Below are positions 14,773 through 61,648 of a stretch of DNA of 64,000 nucleotides, in pieces (position 1 is the stretch's first letter; the number at the start of each line of letters is the position of its first letter). The notes beneath the pieces are model-generated. The model worked only from the letters and a program-made list of their open reading frames with translations. It was not told where the DNA came from and did not search any database. The DNA is from Christensenellaceae bacterium (GTDB taxonomy: Bacteria; Bacillota; Clostridia; Christensenellales; Borkfalkiaceae): positions 9,249 through 73,248 of the forward strand of contig JAZTZE010000010.1 of the NCBI GenBank assembly GCA_045637285.1, given 5' to 3'. The translations under genes were made by a program, and so were the position numbers.

Positions 14773-14825
14773 AAGGTTGACAAAGAGAGAAATATATAGT
14801 AACATTATAATACAAAAGAAATTAG

Positions 14826-15040
14826 CCGACGATTAACGGACAAGTAGTGCCTTTTAGGTTTTTAAGAGAGCAAGGGTTAGGTGTGAGCCTTGTAAATTGA
14901 AAAGGAAAATGAAACCACCGTTTTAGGCAAAGTTACCGCACTTATAAGCGGAAAAGAGAGGCTGTTTATTGGGTAAACGGCAATTAAGGTGGAAACGCGG
15001 AAATTATTCGTCCTTAAAGCAATGCTTTAAGGATTTTTTA
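14826..15040 (+). promoter_or_regulatory. T-box riboswitch leader, threonine specifier ACC
   Basis: Stem I AACGG/CCGTT with AGUA on the 5' side and GAA-ACC-A on the 3' side (ACC at 14914-14916). AGAGA, GGTGTGA distal loop. T-box AATTAAGGTGGAAACGCGG (14982-15000). Terminator TCCTTAAAGC-aat-GCTTTAAGGA followed by T-run. Confidence 0.9.
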
Positions 15041-15059: not shown

Positions 15060-16991
15060 ATGAAAATTACGCTTAAAGACGGTTCTTTTTTAGATTTTGA
15101 AAGTGCCGTTAGCGTTGCTGACGTAGCAATGGCTATATCGGAAGGATTATTTAGAAACGCTGTTTGTGCAAAGGTTGACGGGCAACTCGTTGACTTATCT
15201 ACCCTTATAGAAAAAGACAGCGAAGTTGAAATAGTGACGCTAAAAGATAAAGAAGGGTTACAAGTATATCGTCACACGGTTGCGCACGTTTTAGCGCAAG
15301 CAGTAAAGAACGTTTTCCCGACTAGCAAGCTCGCTATTGGTCCTACCATAGAAAACGGATTTTATTACGATATCGAATTTAAAACGCCCATAACTCAACA
15401 AGATTTGGCTAAGATAGAAAGCGAAATGAAAGACATTATAAAAAGTGATTTCCCCATTGAACGCATAGTTTATTCTAAGCGTGATGCGGTTAAACTTTTC
15501 AAAGGTTTTTCAGAGCCCTATAAAGTTGAACTTATTAACGACCTTCCCGCAAACAGCGTGATATCGTGTTATAAGCAAGGTGATTTCGTTGACTTATGTC
15601 GCGGGCCACACCTTCCATCAACTGGCAAAATCAAAGCTTTCAAGCTTACGTCAATAACTGGTGCTTATTGGCGTGGGGACGAAAAGAACAAAATGCTTAC
15701 CCGTATTTACGGAACGGCATTTGCTAAAAAGTCTGAATTAGAAGAATATCTTACCGCTTTAGAAGAAGCTAAAAAGAGAGATCACAATAAACTTGGCAGA
15801 GAACTTGGAATTTTTATTACTGAAGACGTGGTTGGCCAAGGCTTACCGCTTTTGGGGCATAAAGGTGCGAAAATCATGCAAATTTTACAACGTTTTGTAG
15901 AAGACGAAGAAGAAAAGCGTGGTTTTATGCTTACCAGAACGCCTTATATGGCTAAGAATGACTTATATCGTATTTCAGGTCACTGGGATCATTATAGGGA
16001 CAAAATGTTTATTATAGGTGATGAAAACTCTCCCGAAGCGATGGCTCTTCGTCCTATGACTTGTCCTTTCCAATATCAATTGTATAGAAACGGCTTAAAG
16101 AGTTATAGGGACTTGCCATGCAGATATGCAGAAACTGCGCCTTTATTCAGAAACGAAGCGAGTGGGGAAATGCACGGGCTTATTCGTGTTCGCCAATTTA
16201 CTTTGTCAGACGGTCATATCGTTTGTACCCCCGAACAAATTGAAGGCGAATTTAGACGTTGTTTAGAGCTCACTTATTATTTCCTTGATTGCTTGGGAAT
16301 GAGAGATGACGTTACTTATCGTTTTTCTAAACGTGGAAACTCAAAGAGTGACAAATATATTGACAACGATAAGGCTTGGAATGAAACCGAAGCGTTGATG
16401 AAGGTTATTCTTGACAACATCGGTATTGACTACGTTGAAGCGGACGATGAAGCTGCTTTCTACGGACCTAAACTTGATATTCAAGCAAAGAACGTTTATG
16501 GAAAAGAAGATACTATTATCACTATTCAAATAGACTTTGCTGCAGCACACAACTTTGAAATGACCTATGTAGATGAAAACGGAACTAAGCAATATCCGTT
16601 CGTTATCCACAGAAGCTCAATTGGTTGCTATGAAAGAACTCTCGCAATGCTTATTGAAAAATATGCAGGAGCATTCCCGTTCTGGATTTGCCCCGTTCAA
16701 GTTAAGGTTATGAGCCTTACCGATAGAACGGCAGACTATGCAAAAGAAATAGTAGACAAACTCAAAATGGCTGGTTTAAGAGCAGAAGTTGACGTAAGAA
16801 ACGAAAAAATCGGCTACAAGATTAGAGAAGCTCAGCTTGAAAAAGTTCCTTACATGTTTATTGTTGGCGATAAGGAAAAGGAAGATAACGTTGTTTCCGT
16901 TCGCTCAAGAAAAGACGGGGATTTAGGCGTTATGTCTCTCGAAGAAATAACCTTAAAGCTTGTTGAAGAAGATCGTAGCAAAAAAGTTTAA
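15060..16991 (+). CDS. thrS: Threonine--tRNA ligase
   Basis: 643 aa. TGS domain, second additional domain (HTVAHVLAQA), class II core and anticodon-binding domain. AGGAGG RBS. Confidence 0.97.
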   Translation: MKITLKDGSFLDFESAVSVADVAMAISEGLFRNAVCAKVDGQLVDLSTLIEKDSEVEIVTLKDKEGLQVYRHTVAHVLAQAVKNVFPTSKLAIGPTIENGFYYDIEFKTPITQQDLAKIESEMKDIIKSDFPIERIVYSKRDAVKLFKGFSEPYKVELINDLPANSVISCYKQGDFVDLCRGPHLPSTGKIKAFKLTSITGAYWRGDEKNKMLTRIYGTAFAKKSELEEYLTALEEAKKRDHNKLGRELGIFITEDVVGQGLPLLGHKGAKIMQILQRFVEDEEEKRGFMLTRTPYMAKNDLYRISGHWDHYRDKMFIIGDENSPEAMALRPMTCPFQYQLYRNGLKSYRDLPCRYAETAPLFRNEASGEMHGLIRVRQFTLSDGHIVCTPEQIEGEFRRCLELTYYFLDCLGMRDDVTYRFSKRGNSKSDKYIDNDKAWNETEALMKVILDNIGIDYVEADDEAAFYGPKLDIQAKNVYGKEDTIITIQIDFAAAHNFEMTYVDENGTKQYPFVIHRSSIGCYERTLAMLIEKYAGAFPFWICPVQVKVMSLTDRTADYAKEIVDKLKMAGLRAEVDVRNEKIGYKIREAQLEKVPYMFIVGDKEKEDNVVSVRSRKDGDLGVMSLEEITLKLVEEDRSKKV

Positions 16992-37372: not shown

Positions 37373-38449
37373 ATGAAATTTATTCATTGTTCTGACCTGC
37401 ATTTGGACTCGAAAATTGAAGGTTTGCCAACAGAAAAATCGAGAATTAGGCGAGAAGAAATATTGCGCACCTTTGAGCGACTTGCTAAACACGCCAAAGA
37501 AAACGACGTTTGCGCTGTGATTATCGCGGGAGACATGTTCGACACTGCTCGCGTTAGTGTGAAAACTAAAGAAAGGGTTATCTCGGTTATAAGCGAATGT
37601 GCAAACGTGGATTTTATATATTTATCAGGCAATCACGACGAAAGTAATTTTATCAATACAATAGAACAATTACCCGCAAACTTAAAGTGCGTGGGAGAAG
37701 ATTGGGAGTATTTTAATTATGGTGACGTAACCATAGCGAGTATTATGTTAACCAATGCAAATTCTAAGGCTGTTTACGACACTCTTAAATTGGATGAAAA
37801 TTCAGTTAACGTTGTTGCTTTGCATGGACAAGTTGTTGGTTACAAGGGTGACGGGCAGGCGCACGATATAAGTATTCCTAAGTTAAAAGAAAAAAATATT
37901 GATTATCTTGCATTGGGGCATATTCATAGTTATAGCGAAGGGCAAATTGATTTGCGTGGCAACTATGTATATAGCGGTTGTCTTGACGGCAGGGGCTTTG
38001 ACGAACTTGGTGATAAAGGGTTCGTTCTTATAGACGTGCAAAAAGGAAAGATAAACAAAGAGTTTATAAAATTTAGTTCGAGAACTTTGCATGAATATGA
38101 ATTTAACGTAGAAAATTATCCCAGTTGGCATTCAGCCGTTATGGCAATAGAAAGTCAACTTAAAAACGAATACGATAAAAACAGTTTGATTAAGGTAGTT
38201 TTGTCTGGCGAACACAAAACGGATTTTTATATTGACACAGAAAGCCTTGCGATGAGGCTCAACGAGTTCTTTTTCTTTGCAAAGGTTTATGATAAAACAA
38301 AGCTCAAAATAGAACAATCCGATTATGAAACGGATAAGTCCGTGCGCGGAGAATTCGTGCGTGCGGTTTTGGGTGGCGATATGGATGAAGAGCAAAAAAA
38401 GCAGGTGTTACTCTTAGGGTTAAACGCGCTTAAAGGGGAGGAGATTTAA
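37373..38449 (+). CDS. SbcD/Mre11-type metallophosphoesterase nuclease (YhaO/SbcF-like)
   Basis: CSDLHLDS, AGDMFD, SGNHD, ALHG and LGHIHS. Confidence 0.85.
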   Translation: MKFIHCSDLHLDSKIEGLPTEKSRIRREEILRTFERLAKHAKENDVCAVIIAGDMFDTARVSVKTKERVISVISECANVDFIYLSGNHDESNFINTIEQLPANLKCVGEDWEYFNYGDVTIASIMLTNANSKAVYDTLKLDENSVNVVALHGQVVGYKGDGQAHDISIPKLKEKNIDYLALGHIHSYSEGQIDLRGNYVYSGCLDGRGFDELGDKGFVLIDVQKGKINKEFIKFSSRTLHEYEFNVENYPSWHSAVMAIESQLKNEYDKNSLIKVVLSGEHKTDFYIDTESLAMRLNEFFFFAKVYDKTKLKIEQSDYETDKSVRGEFVRAVLGGDMDEEQKKQVLLLGLNALKGEEI

Positions 38450-38450
38450 C

Positions 38451-40460
38451 GTGAAACTTATTAGATGCTACGTTTACTCTTTCGGCAAGCTTTGTGATTT
38501 CAGTTATGAATTTAACGATAGTTTAAACACGATAAAACAAGATAACGGTTGGGGAAAAAGCACGCTTGCAACCTTTATTAAAGCCATGTTTTATGGGATA
38601 AGTTCGTCAAAACGAAGCGTTAGTGAAAACGAAAGAATTAAGTATAGACCTTGGAATCAAACAGGCGCGTTTGGTGGTAACGTTGAGTTTGAGTGGGGTG
38701 GAAAACTGTTCAAGATAGAACGCTTTTTTGGAACAAAGGAGTCAGAAGACACTGTTAGACTTTTCGACGGGGTTACCGGCAAAGAATTTTCTAACGTTAA
38801 AAACTTAGGTGAACGTATTTTTGAAATTGACGAAGAAGGCTTTTTGTCTACCACGTATTTTTCTCAAAAAGACTTTCAAATAAAAAGCAATACGTCGCTC
38901 ACGGCAAAGTTTAATTCGGTGTGTGAAGTTCAAGATACGAAAGCATATGATAAAGCTATGGAAAAACTGGAAGAAAAGTCTAAGTTTTACAAAATACGCG
39001 GTGATAAAGGGGCGATTTCTGACGTTAAAAGAGAAATAAATCAGGTTGAAAGCCAAATAGAAGTTGCGCTTTCATCAACTATTGCAATAAAGGCGTTAAG
39101 GCAAGAAATTTCACAGCTTGAAACAAAAACGAACAGCCTTAAACTCAAAGCGGTGGATTTAACCGTTAAAATGGAGAAGCAAAACAATCAAAAAGTTATT
39201 GCTGTTAAAAAGAGTCAATACGATGAATTAATCAATCAAAAACAGTCTATTCAAAAAGAGATTGATAATGCGGACGGTGTTCTTTTGGGACGCCTACCGA
39301 GCGAGCAGGAAGTTAATGCTGTAAAGGATTGTTATAACGACCTTATAAGCATAAACAGCTCTAAAAAAGTTGCAGAAGAAAGCATAAAAGGCATAGAAGA
39401 GCAAATCGAGTGCGCGCAAAAAGCAAAAACCAACAAAAAAGGCAAGCTTGCTTTGTCGGGGGCGGTTGTTGGCCTGTTTGCTGTACTCGCGATTGTTTTT
39501 ATGTTCTTTAACGTCACGCTTTCACTTATAACTTTATTAGGATTTGTTGTTGGTTTGGCATTTTTTGTCTATTATATATCAATTAACAAAAATACGGCAG
39601 ACAATGCGTTATTAGAAATGCTTAAAAATTACAAAAACAACAAGCAAGAGTGTGAAACGCTTGAAAAGGAATATTCTGAAAAAATATCAGAGTATCTTTC
39701 GTCGTTCGCATTGCCAACCGATTGTGAAATTCAAAATGCATTCGACGTGATAAAAGATGCCGTTTACCAAAAGAGAAACGCTATAAAAAGAATGGAGCAA
39801 ATTGACGAGCAAATAGGTGCTTTTAGCGGGCTTTTAGGTGAGTTTGATAAACTGTTTTCTAATCAACAGTTGAGCGCAGACGCACTGCGCCTTGAATTAA
39901 ACGCCGTGCAAGAAGATTATGCAAAAAATACGAGTTTGCTCGCTAATAAAAAAGCAAGTTTAAGAACGCACGAACAGGCAGAGAGTGCATTGGCTGATTT
40001 AGAGAATAAAAAGGCGGAATTAGTTGTAAAGCTTGAGCAATATAACGCAGAATATAAAACCGTGTTAAAAACCATTGAATATCTTGAAAGAGCAGACGAA
40101 AATTTAAAGGTGAAATATCGCGCACCATTGCAAGATAGTTTAAATAAGTATTTGGAATATATTTCAACAAGTGGAGAAAAGGCTAATATAGATATAGATT
40201 TAAATGTTACGGTTGAAGAGCCTTCTGGTCAAAAAAACACGGATTATTACAGTAAGGGTTATCAAAATCTGTTTGAAATATGCAAACGTTTCGCACTGAC
40301 CGACGTTTTATTTACAAGTGAAAAACCTTTTATAATTTTAGACGATCCGTTTTATAATCTTGACGACGAAAAAATAAAAAGCGCGATAGAACTCATTAAA
40401 AAACTTAGTGATGAATATCAAATTATATATCTCGTTTGCCACGAAAGTAGGGTTGCATAA
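38451..40460 (+). CDS. Rad50/SbcC-like ABC ATPase with a central TM hairpin (YhaN/SbcE-like)
   Basis: N-terminal Walker A NGWGKST. Long coiled-coil-like heptad regions. Two hydrophobic helices near aa 335-385. C-terminal Walker B FIILDDPF and H-loop CHES. GTG start 1 nt after the nuclease stop. Confidence 0.8.
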   Translation: MKLIRCYVYSFGKLCDFSYEFNDSLNTIKQDNGWGKSTLATFIKAMFYGISSSKRSVSENERIKYRPWNQTGAFGGNVEFEWGGKLFKIERFFGTKESEDTVRLFDGVTGKEFSNVKNLGERIFEIDEEGFLSTTYFSQKDFQIKSNTSLTAKFNSVCEVQDTKAYDKAMEKLEEKSKFYKIRGDKGAISDVKREINQVESQIEVALSSTIAIKALRQEISQLETKTNSLKLKAVDLTVKMEKQNNQKVIAVKKSQYDELINQKQSIQKEIDNADGVLLGRLPSEQEVNAVKDCYNDLISINSSKKVAEESIKGIEEQIECAQKAKTNKKGKLALSGAVVGLFAVLAIVFMFFNVTLSLITLLGFVVGLAFFVYYISINKNTADNALLEMLKNYKNNKQECETLEKEYSEKISEYLSSFALPTDCEIQNAFDVIKDAVYQKRNAIKRMEQIDEQIGAFSGLLGEFDKLFSNQQLSADALRLELNAVQEDYAKNTSLLANKKASLRTHEQAESALADLENKKAELVVKLEQYNAEYKTVLKTIEYLERADENLKVKYRAPLQDSLNKYLEYISTSGEKANIDIDLNVTVEEPSGQKNTDYYSKGYQNLFEICKRFALTDVLFTSEKPFIILDDPFYNLDDEKIKSAIELIKKLSDEYQIIYLVCHESRVA

Positions 40461-41789: not shown

Positions 41790-41819
41790 TTGACAAAATG
41801 CGGTTTTTGGATATATAAT
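41790..41819 (+). promoter_or_regulatory. Promoter P1, TTGACA-18-TATAAT
   Basis: TTGACA at 41790-41795 and TATAAT at 41814-41819. Confidence 0.65.
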
Positions 41820-41835
41820 ACACAAAAAAATAAAA

Positions 41836-42056
41836 CGCAATGAAGGAAACAGACGTTTTAAGTTGATTAGAGAATTGGCGGTTGGTGCAAGCCAAGGAAG
41901 CGAAAAACGTTACTCATTCCCGAGCGGAAACGGCGAACAATTTTAGTAGGCGTTTACGGAGCTTCCGTTACAAGCAAAGAGTGGCCACGAGTTTGTGGCA
42001 ATTCGGGTGGCACCGCGGTTTAATAATCGTCCCTGACAGTTTGTCAGGGCTTTTTT
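41836..42056 (+). promoter_or_regulatory. T-box leader 1 (complete Stem I). Best-geometry specifier is CUC (Leu), but the discriminator-reading base is C
   Basis: K-turn CGC-AAUGA-AGGAA / UUCC-C-GA-GCG. AGAGA at 41869-41873. Distal loop GGTTGGTGCAA. CUC-A at 41913-41916 directly 5' of the UUCC helix. F-box CCGTTA. T-box AATTCGGGTGGCACCGCGG. Terminator CCCTGACA-gtt-TGTCAGGG followed by T-run. Confidence 0.85.
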
Positions 42057-42108
42057 ATTTTTTAATCGTTTATAGTGTGCTAAAAAACCAATACACTCAA
42101 TTATTTGC

Positions 42109-42138
42109 TTGACATTCGGTGTGTTATTATTATATAAT
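42109..42138 (+). promoter_or_regulatory. Promoter P2, TTGACA-18-TATAAT, located between the two T-box leaders
   Basis: TTGACA at 42109-42114 and TATAAT at 42133-42138. Confidence 0.6.
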
Positions 42139-42164
42139 TTTATATAATAATTTAATTGTCCGAA

Positions 42165-42352
42165 ATAAAAAGGAAGGGGATACGAAGCAAGCAATTTGCT
42201 TAAAGATGGAACGTATCAATCCGATGTATACGCACAAACCAGTAACCGTTTACGGATAACTCTGTTAAAGGTTTTAAGTGGCCGTGTTTTACGGCAATTC
42301 GGGTGGTACCGCGGTTATCAATCGTCCCTGACTTTACGTCGGGGATTTTTTA
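42165..42352 (+). promoter_or_regulatory. T-box leader 2 (paralogue of leader 1 with an atypical or abbreviated Stem I). Tentative specifier AUC (Ile)
   Basis: The 3' half is nearly identical to leader 1: CGTTTACGGA, CTGTTA, GCCGT/ACGGC stem III, AATTCGGGTGGTACCGCGG, and terminator TCCCTGAC...GTCGGGGA followed by T-run. No AGAGA or distal loop recognised. AUC-A at 42215-42218 precedes AUCC. Confidence 0.7.
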
Positions 42353-42383: not shown

Positions 42384-43763
42384 ATGAACAAAATTATCGT
42401 GTCAGACTCAACTTTAATATCGGTTAAAGAACAAAACTCAACGCTTACTTTCAGAGAAAGATTGGCTATTTCAAACTGCCTAAACTCTATGAAGGTTGAT
42501 GCAATCGAACTTCCCGCACTAACCGTTTCAAAAGAAGACGAAATAATCTATCGCACTATTTCAGATTCAATTACAAATGCAACCGTTAAAATATCAGTTG
42601 GTAGTGACGAAGCGTTAATAGCAAACGCAGTTGCTTGTGTCAAGAACGCAAGTGACGTTTGCTTGCAAGTAGTGATGCCCGTTTCTACGGCACAAATGGA
42701 ATATTTTTATCACCTTAAAGCTCCTGCTATGCAAGAAAAAATTTGCGCACTCGTTAAAAAGGCAAAGGAGTATTGCGACAAGGTTGAATTCGTCGCTCAA
42801 GACGCGTTCAGGGCAGAAGCAGGTTTTGTTGCTAATTGTGCTAAGTCTGCTTGTGAAACTGGCGCGACTTCAATCGTAATAAGCGATGATGCAGGCGACG
42901 CGTTTCCTGAAGACTTTGCAAAAATCGTAAAGGAAGTTAAGGGCGTTTGTGATCTTAAAGTTTTAGTTAAGCCGTCAAATAAACTTCAGTTATCAGCTTC
43001 CTGTGCGCTCGAAGCAATCAAGGCTGGAGCTGATGGTGTTGTTACTTCAGTTTGCGGTAATTATCTTTGCCCAAGCGTTATTTCCGATATCGTAAGGGCT
43101 AAAAAATTCGATCTTAACGTTGATTGCGATTTAGACGTTTGTAACGTTAAAACTATTAGCCAAATTATTAGCGGAATGGCTTGCGAACAAGTTCAAGCCG
43201 TGCAACAAGCAGGTGTTAACGGAAATATTGATACCAATGCAAGTGCATCTACCGTTTGTGCAATGATAAGTCAGCTTGGCTATGAGCTTTCTGATTCTGA
43301 TATAGGAAAAGTTTACGAAGAATTCAAAAAGTTATCGGCAAAAAAGGAATCTATCGACACAAAAGAGCTTGAAGCAATAATTGCAAGCACGGCTATGCAA
43401 GTCCCTTCAACCTATCATTTAATCAATTACGTTGTAAACAGCAGTAACATAATTTCTGCAACTGCAAACATAACGCTTGAAAAAGATGGCGAAAAATTAA
43501 CCGGTGTTTCTACGGGAGACGGACCTATTGACGCGGCATTCCATGCGATTGAACAAGTTATCGGACATCATTATGAGTTGGATGATTTCCAAGTTCACGC
43601 AGTAACAAAGGGCAGGGGCGCGGTTGGTTCTTCAATAATAAGACTTAGAGCGGACGGAAAGCTTTATCCCGGTAACGGTGTTTCTACCGATATTGTAGGA
43701 GCGTGTATCCGTGCATATATTAACGCTCTTAATAAAATCGTATACGAAGGAGAGCAAAAATGA
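42384..43763 (+). CDS. 2-isopropylmalate/citramalate synthase homologue with degenerate catalytic motifs and an intact LeuA-type C-terminal regulatory domain (probable pseudoenzyme)
   Basis: DSTLISVKEQ replaces DTTLRDGEQ. VKPSNKLQLSA replaces HxHNDxGLA. CGNYLCPS replaces GIGERAGN. C-terminus GDGPIDAAFHAIEQV...VHAVTKGRGAVG...NGVSTDIVGACIRAYINALNK is typical LeuA_dimer. Confidence 0.75.
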   Translation: MNKIIVSDSTLISVKEQNSTLTFRERLAISNCLNSMKVDAIELPALTVSKEDEIIYRTISDSITNATVKISVGSDEALIANAVACVKNASDVCLQVVMPVSTAQMEYFYHLKAPAMQEKICALVKKAKEYCDKVEFVAQDAFRAEAGFVANCAKSACETGATSIVISDDAGDAFPEDFAKIVKEVKGVCDLKVLVKPSNKLQLSASCALEAIKAGADGVVTSVCGNYLCPSVISDIVRAKKFDLNVDCDLDVCNVKTISQIISGMACEQVQAVQQAGVNGNIDTNASASTVCAMISQLGYELSDSDIGKVYEEFKKLSAKKESIDTKELEAIIASTAMQVPSTYHLINYVVNSSNIISATANITLEKDGEKLTGVSTGDGPIDAAFHAIEQVIGHHYELDDFQVHAVTKGRGAVGSSIIRLRADGKLYPGNGVSTDIVGACIRAYINALNKIVYEGEQK

Positions 43764-46210
43764 AACTCTCGTTCGTAGACAGCATGGTTCAAACGTCAAG
43801 TTTTTTGGAACTTTGTAACGTTGCAAAAAGCTATTCGTTCGACGGAATTGAAATTTTCGACGTTAAGAAAGAAAAAATCCAACACGCCGACAGTATATTC
43901 CGCTCAGCGATGACTGCAGATGCCAAAAGAAAACTTGTAAATAGACATATTGCAATTTCCGCAATATCATATCCTAATAAAATTAATTCAAAAACATCGG
44001 TTCAAGACGTCAACAAATACGTGGAATACGCTGCGCTTGCTTCAATCAAAAACGTTGTAGTAGTGCTTGATGATTTTGATTGTTTAGATAGCATCAAAGG
44101 CGTTTTATCTCCGATTATCGACTTTGCAAGCTTAAACGGCGTTAGCATTTTGATTGAAACTTGCGGTGATATGAGCAGAACTGAAAAGGTTTTGGAAGTT
44201 ATAAACTACTTTGGCTCAATCGTGTTAAAAGTTTGTTGGAATATTCGCGAAACATTTTTCAACGCAAAGGAAAGTGCAGACAACACCATTCAAACCTTAG
44301 GCGCGTACATAGCGCACGTTCGTTTAGGAGACAGAAAGGACGGAAAAGACGTTCTTCTTGGTGAAGGGGAACTTCCAGTTGTCGACTTTATTAACGCTCT
44401 TCGTTCGCTTAATTACGACGGGTACGTTTCGGTTATGAGTTCGGGCGAAATAACTTCTGCTGATATTATTCTCACTCACTATAAAAGCCGTTTATCTATA
44501 AGTTCAAGAGAAGTTAGCAACAAAGCCGTATATTACAACCGTTCAAAAACAGGCACGCATCCTTGGAAGAAATACGACGTTTTAGACGTAACTTTTTCAC
44601 AAGTGCTCGATAAGATGGTTGAATATTATCCCGACCAATACGCTTTTAAGTATACCACGCTCGATTATACAAGAACCTATTCTGAATTTAGAGACGATGT
44701 GGATAGGGTTGCGGCTGCGCTCATTTCACTTGGCGTTGAGCCGGGGCATCACGTTGCTATTTGGGCAACGAACGTTCCACAATGGTTTTTAACTTTCTGG
44801 GCAACGGTAAAAATCGGTGCTGTTTTAGTTACGGTAAACACCGCTTATAAAATTCACGAAGCAGAATATTTGTTCCGACAATCAGACACGCATACTCTCG
44901 TTATGATTGACAGTTGCAAAGATTCTAACTACAAAGAAATCGTTGAAGAACTTTGTCCCGAACTTAAGAATACGCAAGCGGGAAACCCGCTTTACTCGAA
45001 AAAGTTACCATTCTTGCGCAACGTTATAACCGTTGGCTTTAATATGGACGGATGCTTAGAGTGGAACGATTTTGTTAAACGTTCTTCACTTATTCCACAA
45101 GAAGAAGTTCGTCGCAGAGCTTCAACCGTTCAACCTGACGACGTTTGCAATATGCAATACACTTCGGGAACAACAGGCTTTCCTAAGGGTGTAATGCTCA
45201 CGCATAGAAACATTGTTAACAACGGCAAGATAATCGGCGACAGGATGGATATTTCAACTGCCGATAGAATGATGATACAAGTGCCTATGTTCCACTGCTT
45301 TGGCATGGTGCTTTCAATGACGAATATGATGACACACGGCGGAACCATTTGTCCGATGCCGTATTTCTCACCAAAATCGTCGCTTGCTTGTATTAACGAC
45401 GAAAAAATCACTTGTTTTAACGGCGTTCCTACAATGTTTATTGCAATGTTTGCACATTCTGACTTTGCAAAAACTGACTTTTCACATATCCGCACGGGAA
45501 TAATGGCTGGTGCAAATTGCCCGCCCGAATTGATGAGAAAGGCTGCTGCGGAAATGAATATGTCCGAAATTATAAGCGTTTACGGTCAAACCGAGGCTTC
45601 CCCTGGTTGTACAATGGGAGAAGTTAACGAAGATATAGATCACCGTGTTGAAACGGTTGGGAGTGCGTTCCCAGGTGTAGAGTGTAAAATTATTGACCCA
45701 GAAACTGGCGAAGAGTTGCCTGACGGTGAAAACGGTGAATTCGTTGCTCGTGGCTATAATATAATGAAAGGTTATTATAAAATGCCAAAAGCAACCGAAC
45801 AAACTATTGACGCTGACGGATGGCTTCACAGCGGAGATATTTGCTGTAGAACTCCAGACGGATATTTTAAGGTAACCGGCAGATTAAAGGATATGATTAT
45901 TCGTGGTGGCGAAAACTTGTATCCGAGAGAAATAGAAGAGTTTTACCTTACACACGAAAAGGTTAAAGACGTTCAAGTCGTTGGCGTTCCAGACAAGAGA
46001 TACGGCGAAGAAGCTTGCGCGTATATCGTTCTTAAAAAGGGTGAAAGCTCTGACGAAAACGAAATGCGCGAATACGGCAACGCGCACATGGCAAAACACA
46101 AAGTGCCAAGATATTTCGTGTTCGTGAAAGACTTCCCAATGAATGCTGCGGGCAAGATATTAAAGTATAAAATGCGTGAAGACGCTATAGAAATATTAAA
46201 TTTGAAATAA
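43760..46210 (+). CDS. Fusion protein: xylose-isomerase-like TIM-barrel domain (about aa 1-250) plus AMP-forming acyl-CoA synthetase (about aa 260-816)
   Basis: N-terminal half has FDGIEIF, SILIETCG, and HVRLGD...LGEGELPVVDFINALRSLNYDGYVSV. C-terminal half has MQYTSGTTGFPKGVMLTH, GQTE, WLHSGD, GRLKDMIIRGGENLYP and AAGKILK. Confidence 0.8.
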   Translation: MKLSFVDSMVQTSSFLELCNVAKSYSFDGIEIFDVKKEKIQHADSIFRSAMTADAKRKLVNRHIAISAISYPNKINSKTSVQDVNKYVEYAALASIKNVVVVLDDFDCLDSIKGVLSPIIDFASLNGVSILIETCGDMSRTEKVLEVINYFGSIVLKVCWNIRETFFNAKESADNTIQTLGAYIAHVRLGDRKDGKDVLLGEGELPVVDFINALRSLNYDGYVSVMSSGEITSADIILTHYKSRLSISSREVSNKAVYYNRSKTGTHPWKKYDVLDVTFSQVLDKMVEYYPDQYAFKYTTLDYTRTYSEFRDDVDRVAAALISLGVEPGHHVAIWATNVPQWFLTFWATVKIGAVLVTVNTAYKIHEAEYLFRQSDTHTLVMIDSCKDSNYKEIVEELCPELKNTQAGNPLYSKKLPFLRNVITVGFNMDGCLEWNDFVKRSSLIPQEEVRRRASTVQPDDVCNMQYTSGTTGFPKGVMLTHRNIVNNGKIIGDRMDISTADRMMIQVPMFHCFGMVLSMTNMMTHGGTICPMPYFSPKSSLACINDEKITCFNGVPTMFIAMFAHSDFAKTDFSHIRTGIMAGANCPPELMRKAAAEMNMSEIISVYGQTEASPGCTMGEVNEDIDHRVETVGSAFPGVECKIIDPETGEELPDGENGEFVARGYNIMKGYYKMPKATEQTIDADGWLHSGDICCRTPDGYFKVTGRLKDMIIRGGENLYPREIEEFYLTHEKVKDVQVVGVPDKRYGEEACAYIVLKKGESSDENEMREYGNAHMAKHKVPRYFVFVKDFPMNAAGKILKYKMREDAIEILNLK

Positions 46211-46229
46211 TTTTAGTAGGTGAGATACT

Positions 46230-47294
46230 ATGGAAATCAAAATTGAAAAAGCAAAAGTATTAAAACAAAAACCCGATTTTTCAAAACTCGGTTTTGGTAA
46301 ATATTTTACCGACCACATGTTTGTGATGGAATACACCGAAGGTGAAGGCTGGAAAAATGCGAGAATAGTCCCGTTCGATTATATTCCCATTCACCCTGCA
46401 TCTACCGTTCTTCATTACGGTGCGGAAATTTTTGAAGGCATGAAAGCTTATAGAACGGCAGACGGATATCAAATGTTCCGTCCGTTAGAAAACGTTAAAA
46501 GAATGAACGATTCAGCAGAAAGACTTTGTCTTCCCACACTTCCTGAAGAGTTTACTTTGAAAGCTTTAACAGAGCTTATTAACATTGACTACGATTGGAT
46601 TCCCGACCAAGAAGGAACGTCTCTTTATATTCGTCCTTTCATGTTTGGTAACGACGAGTCGTTGGGCGTTCACGCTGTTCACAACGCAACTTTCGTTATA
46701 ATCTTATCGCCTGTTGGCAGTTATTACGCAGAAGGTCTTAATCCTGTTAAAATCAGCATTGAAAGTGAAGACGTTCGTGCCGTTCGTGGTGGAACGGGCT
46801 ACGCTAAGTGTGGTGGTAATTACGCTGCAAGTTTAAGAGCGGGCAAACGCGCTGCTGAAAAAGGCTTTACGCAAGTATTGTGGCTTGACGGGGTTGAAAG
46901 AAAATACATCGAAGAAGTTGGCGCAATGAACGTTATGTTCAAGATTAACGGCGAAATCGTTACGCCTATGCTCACAGGTTCAGTTCTTCCCGGTATAACA
47001 AGAAAATCTTGTCTTGAAATCTTAAAAGAATGGGGCTATAAGGTAACCGAAAGACTAATTTCAGTTGACGAACTTATAGCTGCTGCACAAGACGGAACAC
47101 TTGAAGAAGCGTGGGGCACTGGCACTGCTGCGGTAATTTCACCCATCGGTCACTTGTTCTATAAGGACGTTGACTATACAGTTGCAGGCAACAAAATCGG
47201 TCCGCTCGCTCAAAAACTTTACGACGAAGTTACTGGCATTCAATGGGCTAAGAGAGAAGACACGCGTGGCTGGTGCTATAAGGTTAAAGTTTAA
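46230..47294 (+). CDS. ilvE: Branched-chain amino acid aminotransferase
   Basis: 354 aa class IV aminotransferase. ...FTDHMF..., HYGAEIFEGMKAYR, GGTGYAKCGGNYAASL and GITRKS. Confidence 0.92.
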   Translation: MEIKIEKAKVLKQKPDFSKLGFGKYFTDHMFVMEYTEGEGWKNARIVPFDYIPIHPASTVLHYGAEIFEGMKAYRTADGYQMFRPLENVKRMNDSAERLCLPTLPEEFTLKALTELINIDYDWIPDQEGTSLYIRPFMFGNDESLGVHAVHNATFVIILSPVGSYYAEGLNPVKISIESEDVRAVRGGTGYAKCGGNYAASLRAGKRAAEKGFTQVLWLDGVERKYIEEVGAMNVMFKINGEIVTPMLTGSVLPGITRKSCLEILKEWGYKVTERLISVDELIAAAQDGTLEEAWGTGTAAVISPIGHLFYKDVDYTVAGNKIGPLAQKLYDEVTGIQWAKREDTRGWCYKVKV

Positions 47295-47962
47295 TGTTTG
47301 ATAAAAGAATTACGGTGTTCATGGGGCATTACGGTAGTGGAAAGACCTTTATTTCGGTTAATTACGCACTCGCTCTTGCTAAAATGAACAAAAAGGTAAG
47401 CATCTACGATTTGGACATAGTAAATCCTTATTTCAGAACCAAAGATGCAACTAAAATGTTAGACGACAACGGTGTTGAGTTAGTTGTTTCTAAGTTTGCC
47501 CAAACCAACGTGGATATTCCTGCAATGAACGCAAAGTCTTATAAAATGCTCGACGACACTTCTCGCTATGCTGTAGTAGATATCGGTGGTGACGACAGGG
47601 GAGCTTTGGCTTTGGGAAGATTTCGTGACGGAATTATTAAAGAAAACGACTATCAAGCGTTGTTTGTTGTTAATAATCGTCGTCCTGAAACTCGCGACAT
47701 TGAAGGTGCGATGGAAATAAAAGCAGAAATAGAGCAAAGTGGCGGGCTTAAATTCACAGGGATAGTCAACAATGCTAATTTAGGCTGGGAAACTACGGAA
47801 AAAACCGTGCTTGACGGCGTTGAGTTTACCAATGAACTTTCAAAAATAACGGGTCTACCCGTAAAATTTACCGCAATCAGAAAAGATTTGATTACGGGAG
47901 AATTATTAAAAATAAAACAAATTTTGCCGATTGAGCCTATAAAATACGGCGATTGGCAGTAA
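47294..47962 (+). CDS. SIMIBI-class P-loop NTPase (MinD/CooC/Mrp-like), function unknown
   Basis: 222 aa. Walker A GHYGSGKT, and VVDIGGDD. Start overlaps the ilvE stop (TAATG). Confidence 0.65.
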   Translation: MFDKRITVFMGHYGSGKTFISVNYALALAKMNKKVSIYDLDIVNPYFRTKDATKMLDDNGVELVVSKFAQTNVDIPAMNAKSYKMLDDTSRYAVVDIGGDDRGALALGRFRDGIIKENDYQALFVVNNRRPETRDIEGAMEIKAEIEQSGGLKFTGIVNNANLGWETTEKTVLDGVEFTNELSKITGLPVKFTAIRKDLITGELLKIKQILPIEPIKYGDWQ

Positions 47963-47972
47963 AGGAGAAAAC

Positions 47973-48179
47973 ATGGCAAAAGTAACTTTTGACGAAGAGC
48001 GTTGCAAAGGTTGTGGATTGTGTGAAACCGTTTGCCCTAAGCAAATTATCGCACTTTCAAACGAAAAAATCAACGCTAAAGGCTATCATCCGGCAGTTTG
48101 TACCGACTCGGAAAAATGTATTGGTTGTGCTTTTTGTGCAACAATGTGTCCCGACACGGTTATAACGGTGGAAAAGTAG
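47973..48179 (+). CDS. 2-oxoacid:ferredoxin oxidoreductase delta subunit (2x[4Fe-4S] ferredoxin)
   Basis: 68 aa with CKGCGLCETVCP and CIGCAFCATMCP. Confidence 0.9.
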   Translation: MAKVTFDEERCKGCGLCETVCPKQIIALSNEKINAKGYHPAVCTDSEKCIGCAFCATMCPDTVITVEK

Positions 48180-48188
48180 AGGTGAATT

Positions 48189-49259
48189 ATGGCAGAAAAA
48201 GTATTAATGAAAGGTAACGAAGCTTTAGCCGAAGCGGCTATAATGGCAGGTTGCAAATATTATTTTGGTTATCCCATAACCCCGCAAACTGAAGTTGCTG
48301 CATATATGAGTAAGCGCATGCCCAAGATTGGCGGAACGTTTTTACAAGCAGAATCAGAAGTAGCGGCAATTAACATGGTAATTGGCGTTGCTGCTTGCGG
48401 TAAAAGGGTTATGACCAGTAGTTCAAGCCCAGGAATTTCATTAAAGAGCGAAGGTATATCTTATCTTGCTGGTTGTGATCTTCCTGCATTAATAGTAAAC
48501 GTTCAACGTGGCGGTCCTGGTTTAGGTGGTATTCAACCTTCTCAATCAGACTATTTCCAAGCGTTGAAAGGTGGCGGTCACGGTGACTACAAACTTATCG
48601 TTTTAGCACCTGCTTCTATTCAAGAAATGGTTGATTTAACGTTCAAGGGCTTTGACCTTGCTGATAAGTATAGAATGCAAGCAATGATTCTTGCAGACGG
48701 AACGATGGGTCAAATGATGGAACCGGTTAGCTTAGAGCTTGGCGAAGTAAAAGAATACAAAAAAGATTGGGCAACCACTGGTACGAGTACGCACGAAGGA
48801 AGAAATGTTGTTAACTCGTTGTCACTTAACGCTACTCAACTTGAACAATGGAATATCGACAGATATGAAAGATATAAAATCGTTGAACAAAACGAAGTTA
48901 TGTATGAAGAATTTATGATGGACGACGCTGATATTTGTATCGTTTCTTTCGGTATCGCTGCTCGTGTTTCAAAGAATGCGATTATGATGGCAAGAGAAAA
49001 GGGTATAAAGGTTGGTATGATTAGACCTATCACGTTATGGCCATTCCCCAAGGATGCGTTGCTTAAAGCTGCGGGCAAGGTTAAATCATTCTTATCAGTT
49101 GAACTTAATATGGGACAAATGGTTGATGACGTTAAACTCGCTATCAACTGCTCTAAGCCCGTATATTTCTACGGCAGAACTGGTGGCGTTATTATGACGC
49201 CGGACGAAGTTCTTGCTAAAATCGAACAAATCGAAAAAGGAGAAGCAAAACAATGGTAG
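48189..49259 (+). CDS. 2-oxoacid:ferredoxin oxidoreductase alpha subunit (VorA/KorA type)
   Basis: 356 aa. MKGNEALAEAAIMAGCKYYFGYPITPQTE... Confidence 0.88.
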   Translation: MAEKVLMKGNEALAEAAIMAGCKYYFGYPITPQTEVAAYMSKRMPKIGGTFLQAESEVAAINMVIGVAACGKRVMTSSSSPGISLKSEGISYLAGCDLPALIVNVQRGGPGLGGIQPSQSDYFQALKGGGHGDYKLIVLAPASIQEMVDLTFKGFDLADKYRMQAMILADGTMGQMMEPVSLELGEVKEYKKDWATTGTSTHEGRNVVNSLSLNATQLEQWNIDRYERYKIVEQNEVMYEEFMMDDADICIVSFGIAARVSKNAIMMAREKGIKVGMIRPITLWPFPKDALLKAAGKVKSFLSVELNMGQMVDDVKLAINCSKPVYFYGRTGGVIMTPDEVLAKIEQIEKGEAKQW

Positions 49260-49999
49260 TATTTGAAAAGACTAAAGGTCTTACAGACAATCCACTTCAC
49301 TATTGTCCGGGTTGCACGCACGGGATTATTCACCGTTTGGTTGCAGAATGCTTAGAAGAACTTGGCGTTACCGGCAAAACCATCGGTATAGCTTCAGTTG
49401 GCTGTTCTGTATTCTCTTATAATTATTTCAACTGTGATATGGTTCAAGCTGCACACGGCAGAGCACCTGCGGTAGCAACGGGCGTAAAGCGTGCTAACCC
49501 CGATAACATTGTATTTACTTATCAAGGCGACGGAGACCTCGCTGCAATCGGCACGGCTGAAACCGTTCATTCTGCAGCAAGAAACGAAAACATAACCATT
49601 ATTTTCGTTAACAACGCTATTTACGGTATGACTGGCGGTCAAATGGCTCCTACGACACTTCCTAACCAAGTAACGCAAACTTCACCTTACGGTAGAGACG
49701 TTACGGTTGTTGGCTATCCCGTTAGAGTTTGTGAAATGCTTTCTCAAGTTGAAGGTGCTTCATATCTCGAAAGAGTTGCAGTAAACAACGTTAAGAATAT
49801 CAAAAAAGCAAAACAAGCTATTAAGCATGCTTTCCAAAACCAAATAGAAGGCAAAGGTTTTTCTCTTATCGAAGTGTTATCAACTTGTCCGACGAACTGG
49901 GGTTTATCGCCCAAGGAATCATTAAAGTGGCTTGAAGAGAACATGGAAAAGAATTATCCTCTCGGTGTTTATAAAGACAAATATAAGGAGGAAAAATAA
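49253..49999 (+). CDS. 2-oxoacid:ferredoxin oxidoreductase beta subunit (TPP-binding)
   Basis: 248 aa with CPGCTHG, GDGD..AIG and NNAIYGMTGGQ. Confidence 0.9.
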   Translation: MVVFEKTKGLTDNPLHYCPGCTHGIIHRLVAECLEELGVTGKTIGIASVGCSVFSYNYFNCDMVQAAHGRAPAVATGVKRANPDNIVFTYQGDGDLAAIGTAETVHSAARNENITIIFVNNAIYGMTGGQMAPTTLPNQVTQTSPYGRDVTVVGYPVRVCEMLSQVEGASYLERVAVNNVKNIKKAKQAIKHAFQNQIEGKGFSLIEVLSTCPTNWGLSPKESLKWLEENMEKNYPLGVYKDKYKEEK

Positions 50000-50535
50000 T
50001 GAGTAAGACTACGAAAATACTTATTGCAGGCTTTGGTGGACAAGGTATTTTGTTTGCGGGTAAGGCTTTAGCGTTTACTGGGCTTAAATCAGGTATGGAA
50101 GTTAGTTGGCTTCCTTCTTACGGTCCTGAAATGCGCGGTGGCACGGCAAACTGTAGCGTAACGTTAAGTGATATTCCAATCGGTTCTCCGATTGTAGATA
50201 AACCTGACGTTTTGGTTGCGATGAACTTGCCTTCTTTAGAAAAGTATTTAAGCGAAACAGAAAAATCTGGCTACGTTATTTACGACAGCTCACTTATTTC
50301 TAAGGACGTTGAAAGGGCAGATGTTTCTATTTCAGGTATTCCCGCAACAAAAATGGCAAGCGATAACGGACTTAACGGACTTGCAAATATGATTATATTA
50401 GGCAAGGTAATCAAAGAAACTGGTGTTTTATCACTTGAACAAATCAAAACGAGCTTAGCACAAATGATTCCAGCTAAAAAAGCACATTTATTAGAAAGCA
50501 ATGTAAAAGCTATTGAATTAGGCTATAATTTCTAA
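49999..50535 (+). CDS. 2-oxoacid:ferredoxin oxidoreductase gamma subunit
   Basis: 178 aa. ILIAGFGGQGILFAGK...SYGPEMRGGTANC. Confidence 0.9.
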   Translation: MSKTTKILIAGFGGQGILFAGKALAFTGLKSGMEVSWLPSYGPEMRGGTANCSVTLSDIPIGSPIVDKPDVLVAMNLPSLEKYLSETEKSGYVIYDSSLISKDVERADVSISGIPATKMASDNGLNGLANMIILGKVIKETGVLSLEQIKTSLAQMIPAKKAHLLESNVKAIELGYNF

Positions 50536-50551
50536 TTATAAACGCAATTAA

Positions 50552-50582
50552 AAACGGAGTAGAAATGCTCCGTTTTTTTTGT
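50552..50582 (+). terminator. Strong intrinsic terminator ending the T-box operon
   Basis: AACGGAG-tagaaatg-CTCCGTT followed by eight T. Confidence 0.8.
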
Positions 50583-61572: not shown

Positions 61573-61648
61573 GCTGATATGGCTCAGATGGTAGAGCACA
61601 TCCTTGGTAAGGATGAGGTCACCGGTTCGATTCCGGTTATCAGCTCCA
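61573..61648 (+). tRNA. tRNA-Thr (anticodon GGU), discriminator U, CCA encoded
   Basis: GCTGATATGGCTCAGATGGTAGAGCACATCCTTGGTAAGGATGAGGTCACCGGTTCGATTCCGGTTATCAGCTCCA folds as a canonical cloverleaf. Confidence 0.93.

Follow-up and report, generated by a model that had tools for sequence, protein, structure and literature searches.

A proposed heterotypic, partly decayed tandem of T-box leaders with a Stem-I-less second member in a Christensenellaceae bacterium

What might the second of two T-box leaders in front of one operon still sense when the part that reads the codon has decayed, and does the first leader sense the transfer RNA (tRNA) that its own letters seem to announce? These questions are raised by a DNA stretch of 64,000 nucleotides from a Christensenellaceae bacterium (GenBank assembly GCA_045637285.1, contig JAZTZE010000010.1, positions 9,249 to 73,248 of the forward strand), hereafter termed the window. 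Upstream of an operon that begins with a gene for a LeuA-like protein, it carries in order a promoter (P1), a leucine T-box (leader 1), a terminator (T1), a second promoter (P2), a second T-box-derived leader (leader 2) and a second terminator (T2) (Table 1). We propose, with a probability of about 0.6, that the two leaders form a heterotypic tandem that has partly decayed, and in which T2 would be relieved by codon-independent capture of the 3' end of uncharged tRNAs bearing the discriminator base A73.

The two leaders and the conserved half of leader 2

A preliminary description of this DNA had claimed a tandem of T-box leaders, both of which have a promoter and a terminator to themselves, and the located motifs, Rfam matches and hairpins bear this out. 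The order of the features likewise agrees with its statement that transcripts from P1 face two terminators and those from P2 only one; all transcripts, whether started at P1 or at P2, have to pass T2. For comparison, orthologous loci (designated by L numbers) were gathered by a scan of species-representative genomes, a metagenome scan, a protein search and contig look-ups. They belong mostly to metagenome-assembled genomes of Christensenellaceae and other Clostridia, many of them from gut or rumen samples. Among 167 sequences including the window, a single upstream T-box motif is present in 90 loci and two motifs in 24; with one duplicate contig left out and L167, L168 and L169 taken in, the distinct tandem loci are the window and 25 others. 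The nearest relatives by protein identity, L161 (81%), L163 (76%) and L165 (73%), came from the protein search and contig look-ups, and the metagenome scan yielded no relative above 67% identity.

The promoter pattern, searched as a regular expression, occurs upstream of leader 1 in 23/23 tabulated tandem loci, with an aberrant match inside Stem I in L016, and between both leaders in the same 23/23 as well as in L167-L169. As the background rate of this expression is 0.077 per kilobase per strand, P2 is, by this comparison, a conserved feature and no chance match, and we infer from the sequence that it fires. The P1 -10 box lies 180-202 nucleotides from the T-box motif of leader 1 in 22 of the 23 tandem loci, and the P2 -10 box lies 98 to 201 nucleotides from that of leader 2 across the tabulated loci.

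Leader 1 is, as judged from its alignment, an ordinary Leu member of the T-box family. It matches the Rfam model RF00230 throughout (model positions 1-219) and scores above the gathering score of 93 bits. Its elements comprise Stem I with K-turn, specifier loop, AG bulge and distal loop, followed by Stem II, the IIA/B pseudoknot, Stem III and the antiterminator; the segments UGA...GAGC, CUC-A-UUCC, AGAGA and GGUUGGUGCAAGCC all fit the model. The codon CUC stands at the specifier position in 18/18 aligned leader-1 sequences and, by eye, also in the aligned relatives with a single T-box (L010 ends before that position), in line with the CUC (Leu) assignment of the preliminary description. Its identity to L161 and L163 amounts to 89-98% across Stem I plus Stem II and to 89-91% across Stem I alone. 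Its antiterminator and intrinsic terminator are mutually exclusive, with predicted energies of -8.4 and -18.1 kcal/mol, respectively. It shares every canonical element with the single Leu (CUC) T-box leaders of branched-chain amino-acid operons, for example that of B. subtilis ilv-leu; compared with these, it precedes a second promoter and a second terminator switch, and its bulge reads UGGC instead of UGGU.

At the gathering score, RF00230 recognizes only leader 1 of the two, an outcome that the preliminary description had named among its possible refutations. Leader 2, which a lax local search recovers at 55.4 bits, is still clearly T-box derived, and its score is low because the whole of Stem I is missing: 92 consensus positions of the model Stem I are answered by just 15 inserted bases. 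A K-turn (UGA/GA), an AG bulge (AGAGA) and a distal loop were sought in the sequence of leader 2 and none was found, as the preliminary description had already reported. The GAA of the Stem II S-turn is also absent, with CACAAAC in its place, and by eye this half of the S-turn is gone in L161 and L163 as well. The Stem I remnant folds no better than shuffled sequences, with z-scores of -0.8 in the window, +0.9 in L161 and -1.2 in L163. The remainder, from the 3' side of Stem II through IIA/B and Stem III to the antiterminator, aligns well to RF00230. The parts of the discriminator are present, namely AAGUG, Stem III, AA, GGG, UGGUACC and GCGGU/AUCGU, and the terminator overlaps the 3' strand of the antiterminator.

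Segment-wise comparison of the window with L161 and L163 separates these two halves. The Stem I remnant is 33-43% identical, and the neutral-looking spacer from T1 to P2 49-58%; identity amounts to 89-93% in the Stem II 3' strand, IIA/B and F-box, 80-88% in Stem III, T-box and antiterminator, and 88% in the terminator 3' arm with its U tract. Pair counts on the named structure, taken over 22 leader-2 sequences of which 19 lack Stem I, revealed changes on both sides in 5/5 pairs of Stem III with 100% of cells paired, antiterminator helices that are 99-100% paired and a terminator that is 94.8% paired; in controls with slid partners, pairing falls to 35-64%. The bulge UGGUACC and the purine-string AGUG and AA are invariant in 22/22 of these sequences. 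In most loci, a complement of the IIA loop is seen by eye just 3' of the F-box, in differing sequences such as GCC/GGC, ACU/GGU and GUC/GAU. The 5' arm of T2, CCCUGAC (42326-42332 in the window), is almost invariant across the 22 lineages, and the corresponding T1 arm varies with compensation (CCCAAAC, CCCGAAC, CCCAGAC, CCUAAAC).

The preliminary description had called the 3' halves of the two leaders nearly identical. They do have the conserved generic T-box blocks in common; their identity, however, is only about 63% over 138 nucleotides. Within genomes of the window group it is 0.62-0.63, no higher than across genomes, and recent gene conversion has left no sign there, so gene conversion was rejected as the sole cause of the conservation of leader 2. 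A separate observation concerns L004, L081 and L083, where the within-genome identity of the 3' halves reaches 0.80-0.82, unconstrained loops included, compared with about 0.63 across genomes; this suggests gene conversion between the tandem copies of these three loci. Given these identities and pair counts, for which gene conversion cannot account in the window group, leader 2 has a discriminator half that is, on this comparative evidence, under purifying selection of its own, and a decoding half that is not. Lacking the Stem I by which the T-box family is recognized, leader 2 is, from its alignment, best called a headless T-box discriminator.

Table 1. Features of the leader region, the operon and the threonine control in the window
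Feature	Position	Strand	Remarks
Intergenic leader region	between 41783 and 42384		about 600 bases, from the end of the amidohydrolase gene to the start of the LeuA-like gene
Promoter P1	41790-41819	+	TTGACA-18-TATAAT, 12/12 match
Leader 1, complete T-box	41831-42037	+	RF00230, 116.6 bits
Leader 1 specifier CUC (Leu)	41913-41915	+	followed by A41916 and helix UUCC 41917-41920 (Rfam alignment)
Leader 1 T-box bulge UGGC	42008-42011	+	variable base C42011, expected opposite the tRNA discriminator
Terminator T1	42031-42056	+	8-bp stem and U tract; hairpin 42031-42049
Promoter P2, leader-internal	42109-42138	+	TTGACA-18-TATAAT, 12/12 match
Leader 2 Stem I remnant	42171-42240	+	hairpin GAUACG...CGUAUC; AUC triplets 42215-42217 and 42219-42221
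Leader 2 T-box match	42200-42332	+	RF00230, lax local search, 55.4 bits, E = 1.3e-11
Leader 2 conserved 3' half	42241-42332	+	Stem II 3' strand (AGUA), IIA/B pseudoknot, F-box, purine string, Stem III, antiterminator
Leader 2 Stem III	42281-42295	+	
Leader 2 T-box bulge UGGUACC	42304-42310	+	UGGU 42304-42307; helices A1 and A2 alongside
Terminator T2	42324-42352	+	9 pairs and U tract; hairpin 42324-42346
Operon	42384-50535	+	terminator at 50550-50577
LeuA-like protein gene	42384-43763	+	
TIM-barrel (xylose-isomerase-like)::acyl-CoA ligase fusion	43760-46210	+	816 amino acids
IlvE	46230-47294	+	
P-loop NTPase	47294-47962	+	
Small open reading frame	47973-48179	+	at the position of a called ferredoxin gene in L161/L163; assigned by position only
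VorB/A/C-like 2-oxoacid:ferredoxin oxidoreductase subunits	48189-50535	+	
Third T-box, upstream of the ThrRS gene	14820-15018		specifier ACC-A, bulge UGGA, 88.4 bits
ThrRS gene	15060-16991		TGS, SAD, class II core and anticodon-binding domains
tRNA-Thr(GGU)	61573-61648		U73

Ancestry of leader 2 and the bulge of leader 1

The full tandem of two complete T-boxes, absent from the window, is found in L165, L008 and L025, where both members pass the Rfam gathering score (104.7-128.5 bits; the second T-box at 114, 128.5 and 121.2 bits, respectively). In L165, the alignment of the second T-box places AUC-A-UUCC at the specifier, and the specifier site of the second T-box is GGAUCAUUCC in L008 and AAAUCAUCUC in L025. 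Since these three loci keep a full second T-box with AUC, the intact arrangement is, by alignment, Leu (CUC) followed by Ile (AUC), and leader 2 of the window is a former Ile T-box; the AUC (Ile) candidate named in the preliminary description thereby finds its ancestry in the relatives. More distant relatives of the window operon bear one single Leu (CUC) leader.

On a tree of the LeuA-like protein (neighbour-joining, poorly resolved), L165, L008 and L025 sit on separate branches, each beside loci with a Stem-I-less leader 2. As the intact loci are thus scattered among Stem-I-less sisters, Stem I of leader 2 has probably been lost several times. Intermediate wrecks of this Stem I are seen in L005, L014, L015, L017, L168 and L169, and in total the downstream member is without Stem I in about 23 of 26 lineages, with the discriminator kept. 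Two further loci, L003 (about 1750-2050) and L024, possess only one CUC T-box, which stands at the distance usual for leader 2, and fall among tandem loci in the tree; they look like tandem repeats collapsed by recombination. A motif search for orphan headless T-boxes elsewhere in the roughly 1.3 Mb of gathered loci returned none.

From the bulges UGGC in leader 1 and UGGU in leader 2, the preliminary description had deduced that the two leaders sense different tRNAs. The letters are correct; the deduction does not hold up, as the bulge of leader 1 is UGGU in the nearest relatives L161, L163 and L165, beside the identical CUC specifier context ACUCAUUCC. In the tabulated set, the variable bulge base is U in 90/90 single leaders, 23/23 downstream leaders and 18/23 upstream leaders, and L167, L168 and L169, outside these 23, have U in both leaders. 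With UGGU in the three nearest relatives and in 90/90 single leaders, UGGC gives no sign of a tRNA with G73. The base C occurs in five upstream leaders, those of the window and of the clade L011, L014, L015 and L017, which makes two origins of the UGGU-to-UGGC change on the LeuA-like tree. Its restriction to upstream members of tandem pairs (0/23 downstream and 0/90 single leaders) hints at a relaxed or altered constraint there, though from two events only. By comparison with its relatives, C42011 is a derived, recent and private T-to-C point change within a Leu T-box that is highly conserved elsewhere. Bacterial tRNA-Leu generally carries A73. The change is thus predicted to set C against A73, as a mismatch or an A+/C wobble, and leader 1 is probably the weaker for it. 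The further suggestion that leader 1 might be a decaying relic had matters the wrong way round, for it is Stem I of leader 2 that has decayed.

The rule that the bulge base covaries with the discriminator does work in this genome, because the leader upstream of the threonyl-tRNA synthetase (ThrRS) gene combines ACC and UGGA with a tRNA-Thr(GGU) that has U73; both parts of this control, named in the preliminary description, were found. The score of this third T-box is just below the RF00230 gathering score because its Stem II region is absent from the alignment; it would escape default Rfam annotation. A search for tRNA-Leu and tRNA-Ile genes with ARAGORN, covering the window and the gathered loci, found only Pro, Thr and Arg genes among those examined. 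The practical lesson is that the bulge base alone is unfit for assigning tRNA specificity unless relatives are examined.

A proposed mechanism and its rivals

We propose that, in an ancestor of the Christensenellaceae-like clade, a single Leu (CUC) T-box became two serial promoter-plus-T-box modules, the second of which had an Ile (AUC) specifier that differs from CUC by one base; that it arose by duplication of the first module would be a guess. In leader 1, uncharged tRNA-Leu(GAG) would pair with CUC, and its 3' end would stabilise the antiterminator over T1, a contact that the U-to-C change in the bulge probably weakens through the C/A73 mismatch. Leader 2 has given up the K-turn, the geometry of the specifier loop, the elbow-binding platform and the GAA of the S-turn, and has retained a selected discriminator (Stem III, purine string, UGGU bulge, A1 and A2) together with a strong T2. 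This terminator would be relieved by the 3' end (NCCA) of an uncharged A73 tRNA, with the codon unread. Among the three contacts between tRNA and T-box, that of the 3' end ranks second in affinity (PMC7583486). The tRNA for leader 2 could come from the free deacylated pool or, on transcripts from P1, could be the tRNA-Leu anchored on Stem I of leader 1. Autonomous sensing is favoured over a pure hand-off because P2 is strictly conserved, which argues for a role of the transcripts from P2. The output of the operon would then be roughly (P2 + P1 x Leu starvation) x (general A73 tRNA deacylation).

Three other accounts of leader 2 were considered and rejected. A leaky T2 was ruled out, as the predicted terminator and antiterminator energies of leader 2 (-17.2 and -7.2 kcal/mol) match those of leader 1; for the relatives, energies refer to cleanly parsed cases only, since the U-tract parser shortened several of them. 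A relay by RNA pairing, in which the freed 3' arm of T1 would pair with the 5' arm of T2, finds by eye no covariation within genomes, with the T1 arms variable and the T2 arm constant. A leader peptide in leader 2 would have to start at the ATG at 42206, whose 17-codon frame has no ribosome-binding site and, by eye, is not conserved in L161/L163.

Several points weigh against the proposed mechanism. Stem I is described as 'obligate' in T-boxes, and those of the transcriptional type lose readthrough in vivo once the elbow platform is disabled (PMC7583486). An element without Stem I may simply be unresponsive to tRNA. In L004, L081 and L083, gene conversion from leader 1 could help to preserve leader 2. 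Were T2 relieved solely by a tRNA held on leader 1, there would be no explanation for why P2 is so strictly conserved. Moreover, we assume A73 for tRNA-Leu and tRNA-Ile in this organism from general knowledge and from the U in the relatives, and the proposal draws on sequences of uncultured organisms.

A more far-reaching version of the proposal is offered tentatively, at clearly less than even odds. It holds that a headless T-box with its own promoter has been selected in about 23 lineages and gates a salvage operon for branched-chain amino acids via uncharged A73 3' ends, with the codon unread. The headless T-box would then be either a general sensor of tRNA charging or a second checkpoint, one that makes use of the tRNA-Leu bound upstream by leader 1, and the recurrent U-to-C change in leader 1 would tune the release of the tRNA end.

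The rival that survives best takes leader 2 for a fixed attenuator or relic that is blind to tRNA, so that T2 would stop a constant fraction of transcripts and set the dynamic range, and regulation would come entirely from leader 1 and promoter strength. It is in accord with the obligate nature of Stem I and the essential elbow platform of transcriptional T-boxes (PMC7583486), with the score of leader 2 below 93 bits, with a Stem I remnant that evolves like neutral DNA, and with a T2 that is thermodynamically as dominant as T1. A plain terminator, however, would have no use for Stem III, the purine string or UGGUACC, all of which are nonetheless invariant or covarying in 22/22 lineages, 19 of them without Stem I. 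The tandem is also probably collapsible by recombination, as L003 and L024 illustrate, and yet it has been kept in about 26 lineages. We therefore consider a fixed attenuator unlikely, if worth keeping in mind.

It is less probable still that leader 2 of the window remains specific for Ile, with a minimal Stem I, comparable to the ultrashort one of actinobacterial ileS T-boxes, that would use one or the other of the two AUC triplets in the remnant. An AUC does survive in the remnant of the window, L161, L163, L169 and L005, the ancestral specificity is Ile, and leader 2 retains the base of Stem II with the AGUA motif and the IIA/B pseudoknot. Against this, there is no K-turn, and the window, L161 and L163 have all lost the GAA half of the S-turn. 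In a minimum-free-energy fold no better than those of shuffled sequences, the GAUACG/CGUAUC helix takes up the first AUC, and the second also lies partly in paired sequence. The remnant shows only the low identity given above even between close relatives, most Stem-I-less relatives have no ATC upstream of Stem II, and one AUC per 70 nucleotides is expected by chance.

Very improbable, finally, is that the UGGC of leader 1 reports a G73 tRNA, be it through sensing of an amino acid other than Leu or in a decaying relic: UGGC would pair with G73 and the +1 frame of ACUCAU gives UCA (Ser), but the three nearest relatives have UGGU with an identical ACUCAUUCC context and so does every single leader, the operon encodes IlvE, 2-oxoacid:ferredoxin oxidoreductase (VOR) and a LeuA-like protein, UCA would precede U and not the usual purine, and leader 1 is otherwise 89-98% conserved at 116.6 bits. 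In general, tRNA-Ser carries G73 and has a long variable arm, as does tRNA-Leu.

The operon and its place among tandem leaders

The LeuA-like protein encoded by the first gene of the operon is divergent, with 229 bits against the 532-bit NCBIfam cut-off for LeuA, and its relatives are named 'hypothetical protein'. Because an acyl-CoA ligase, VOR and a transaminase co-occur, the operon appears, from domain content only, to turn branched short-chain fatty acids into branched-chain amino acids by reductive carboxylation. Upstream of the leader (37373-40460), a Metallophos protein and an SMC_N-like protein of 669 amino acids form an SbcCD-like pair, accompanied by a 146-amino-acid protein and the amidohydrolase. 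Synteny extends to all four in L161 and L165 and to the last two in L163; this neighbourhood appears unrelated to the leader. Inside the T-box leaders themselves, a called gene for 65 amino acids in L161 (5243-5440) and an open reading frame for 83 amino acids in the window (41943-42194, minus strand) are probably spurious.

Tandem T-boxes have reportedly been described before, by Vitreschak in 2008 and Gutierrez-Preciado in 2009, with B. subtilis thrZ and the trp operons of several Firmicutes among the examples. To our knowledge, the known tandems usually have one specificity and lie in one transcript. The present locus likewise has two T-box-derived attenuators in series, with the full tandem in L165, L008 and L025. 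It differs from them in that the pair was Leu plus Ile, that each module has its own conserved consensus promoter, and that the downstream member has, in most lineages, lost Stem I and kept the discriminator. Overlap with the 'partially tandem' T-boxes is possible; these are listed as an open problem in PMC7583486, where Stem I is treated as obligatory. The arrangement is a variant of tandem or partially tandem T-boxes.

Two other systems invite comparison. The actinobacterial translational ileS T-boxes with an ultrashort Stem I (Sherwood 2015), as outlined in the passages of PMC7583486 that cite them, are without the elbow platform and keep Stem II and IIA/B. With this type, as outlined there, leader 2 shares its Ile ancestry, the lack of an elbow-binding platform, and Stem II with IIA/B; it differs in having neither the K-turn nor the S-turn GAA, in AUC triplets that are paired in the predicted fold, and in ending in an intrinsic terminator. 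Tandem riboswitch gates that join a T-box with a guanosine tetraphosphate (ppGpp) sensor, or a phosphoribosyl pyrophosphate (PRPP) with a guanine sensor (Sherlock 2018), again as summarized where PMC7583486 cites them, are likewise serial terminator switches, and for upstream starts the present leader is AND-like in the same way. Compared with those gates as summarized, the internal promoter here gives (P2 + P1 x A) x B and not a pure AND, and the second sensor seems to be no longer specific.

Altogether, the clade offers a natural series, with full tandems of Leu plus Ile at one end and second copies devoid of Stem I at the other, and the comparative evidence shows that selection continues to act on the charge-sensing half once the decoding half has been lost. 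Should the headless copy remain responsive to tRNA, the discriminator would act in vivo as a sensor in its own right. Such a result, if true, would bear on the evolution of T-boxes and on the design of synthetic reporters of tRNA charging, as well as on how gut Clostridia control an apparent route from branched-chain fatty acids to amino acids.

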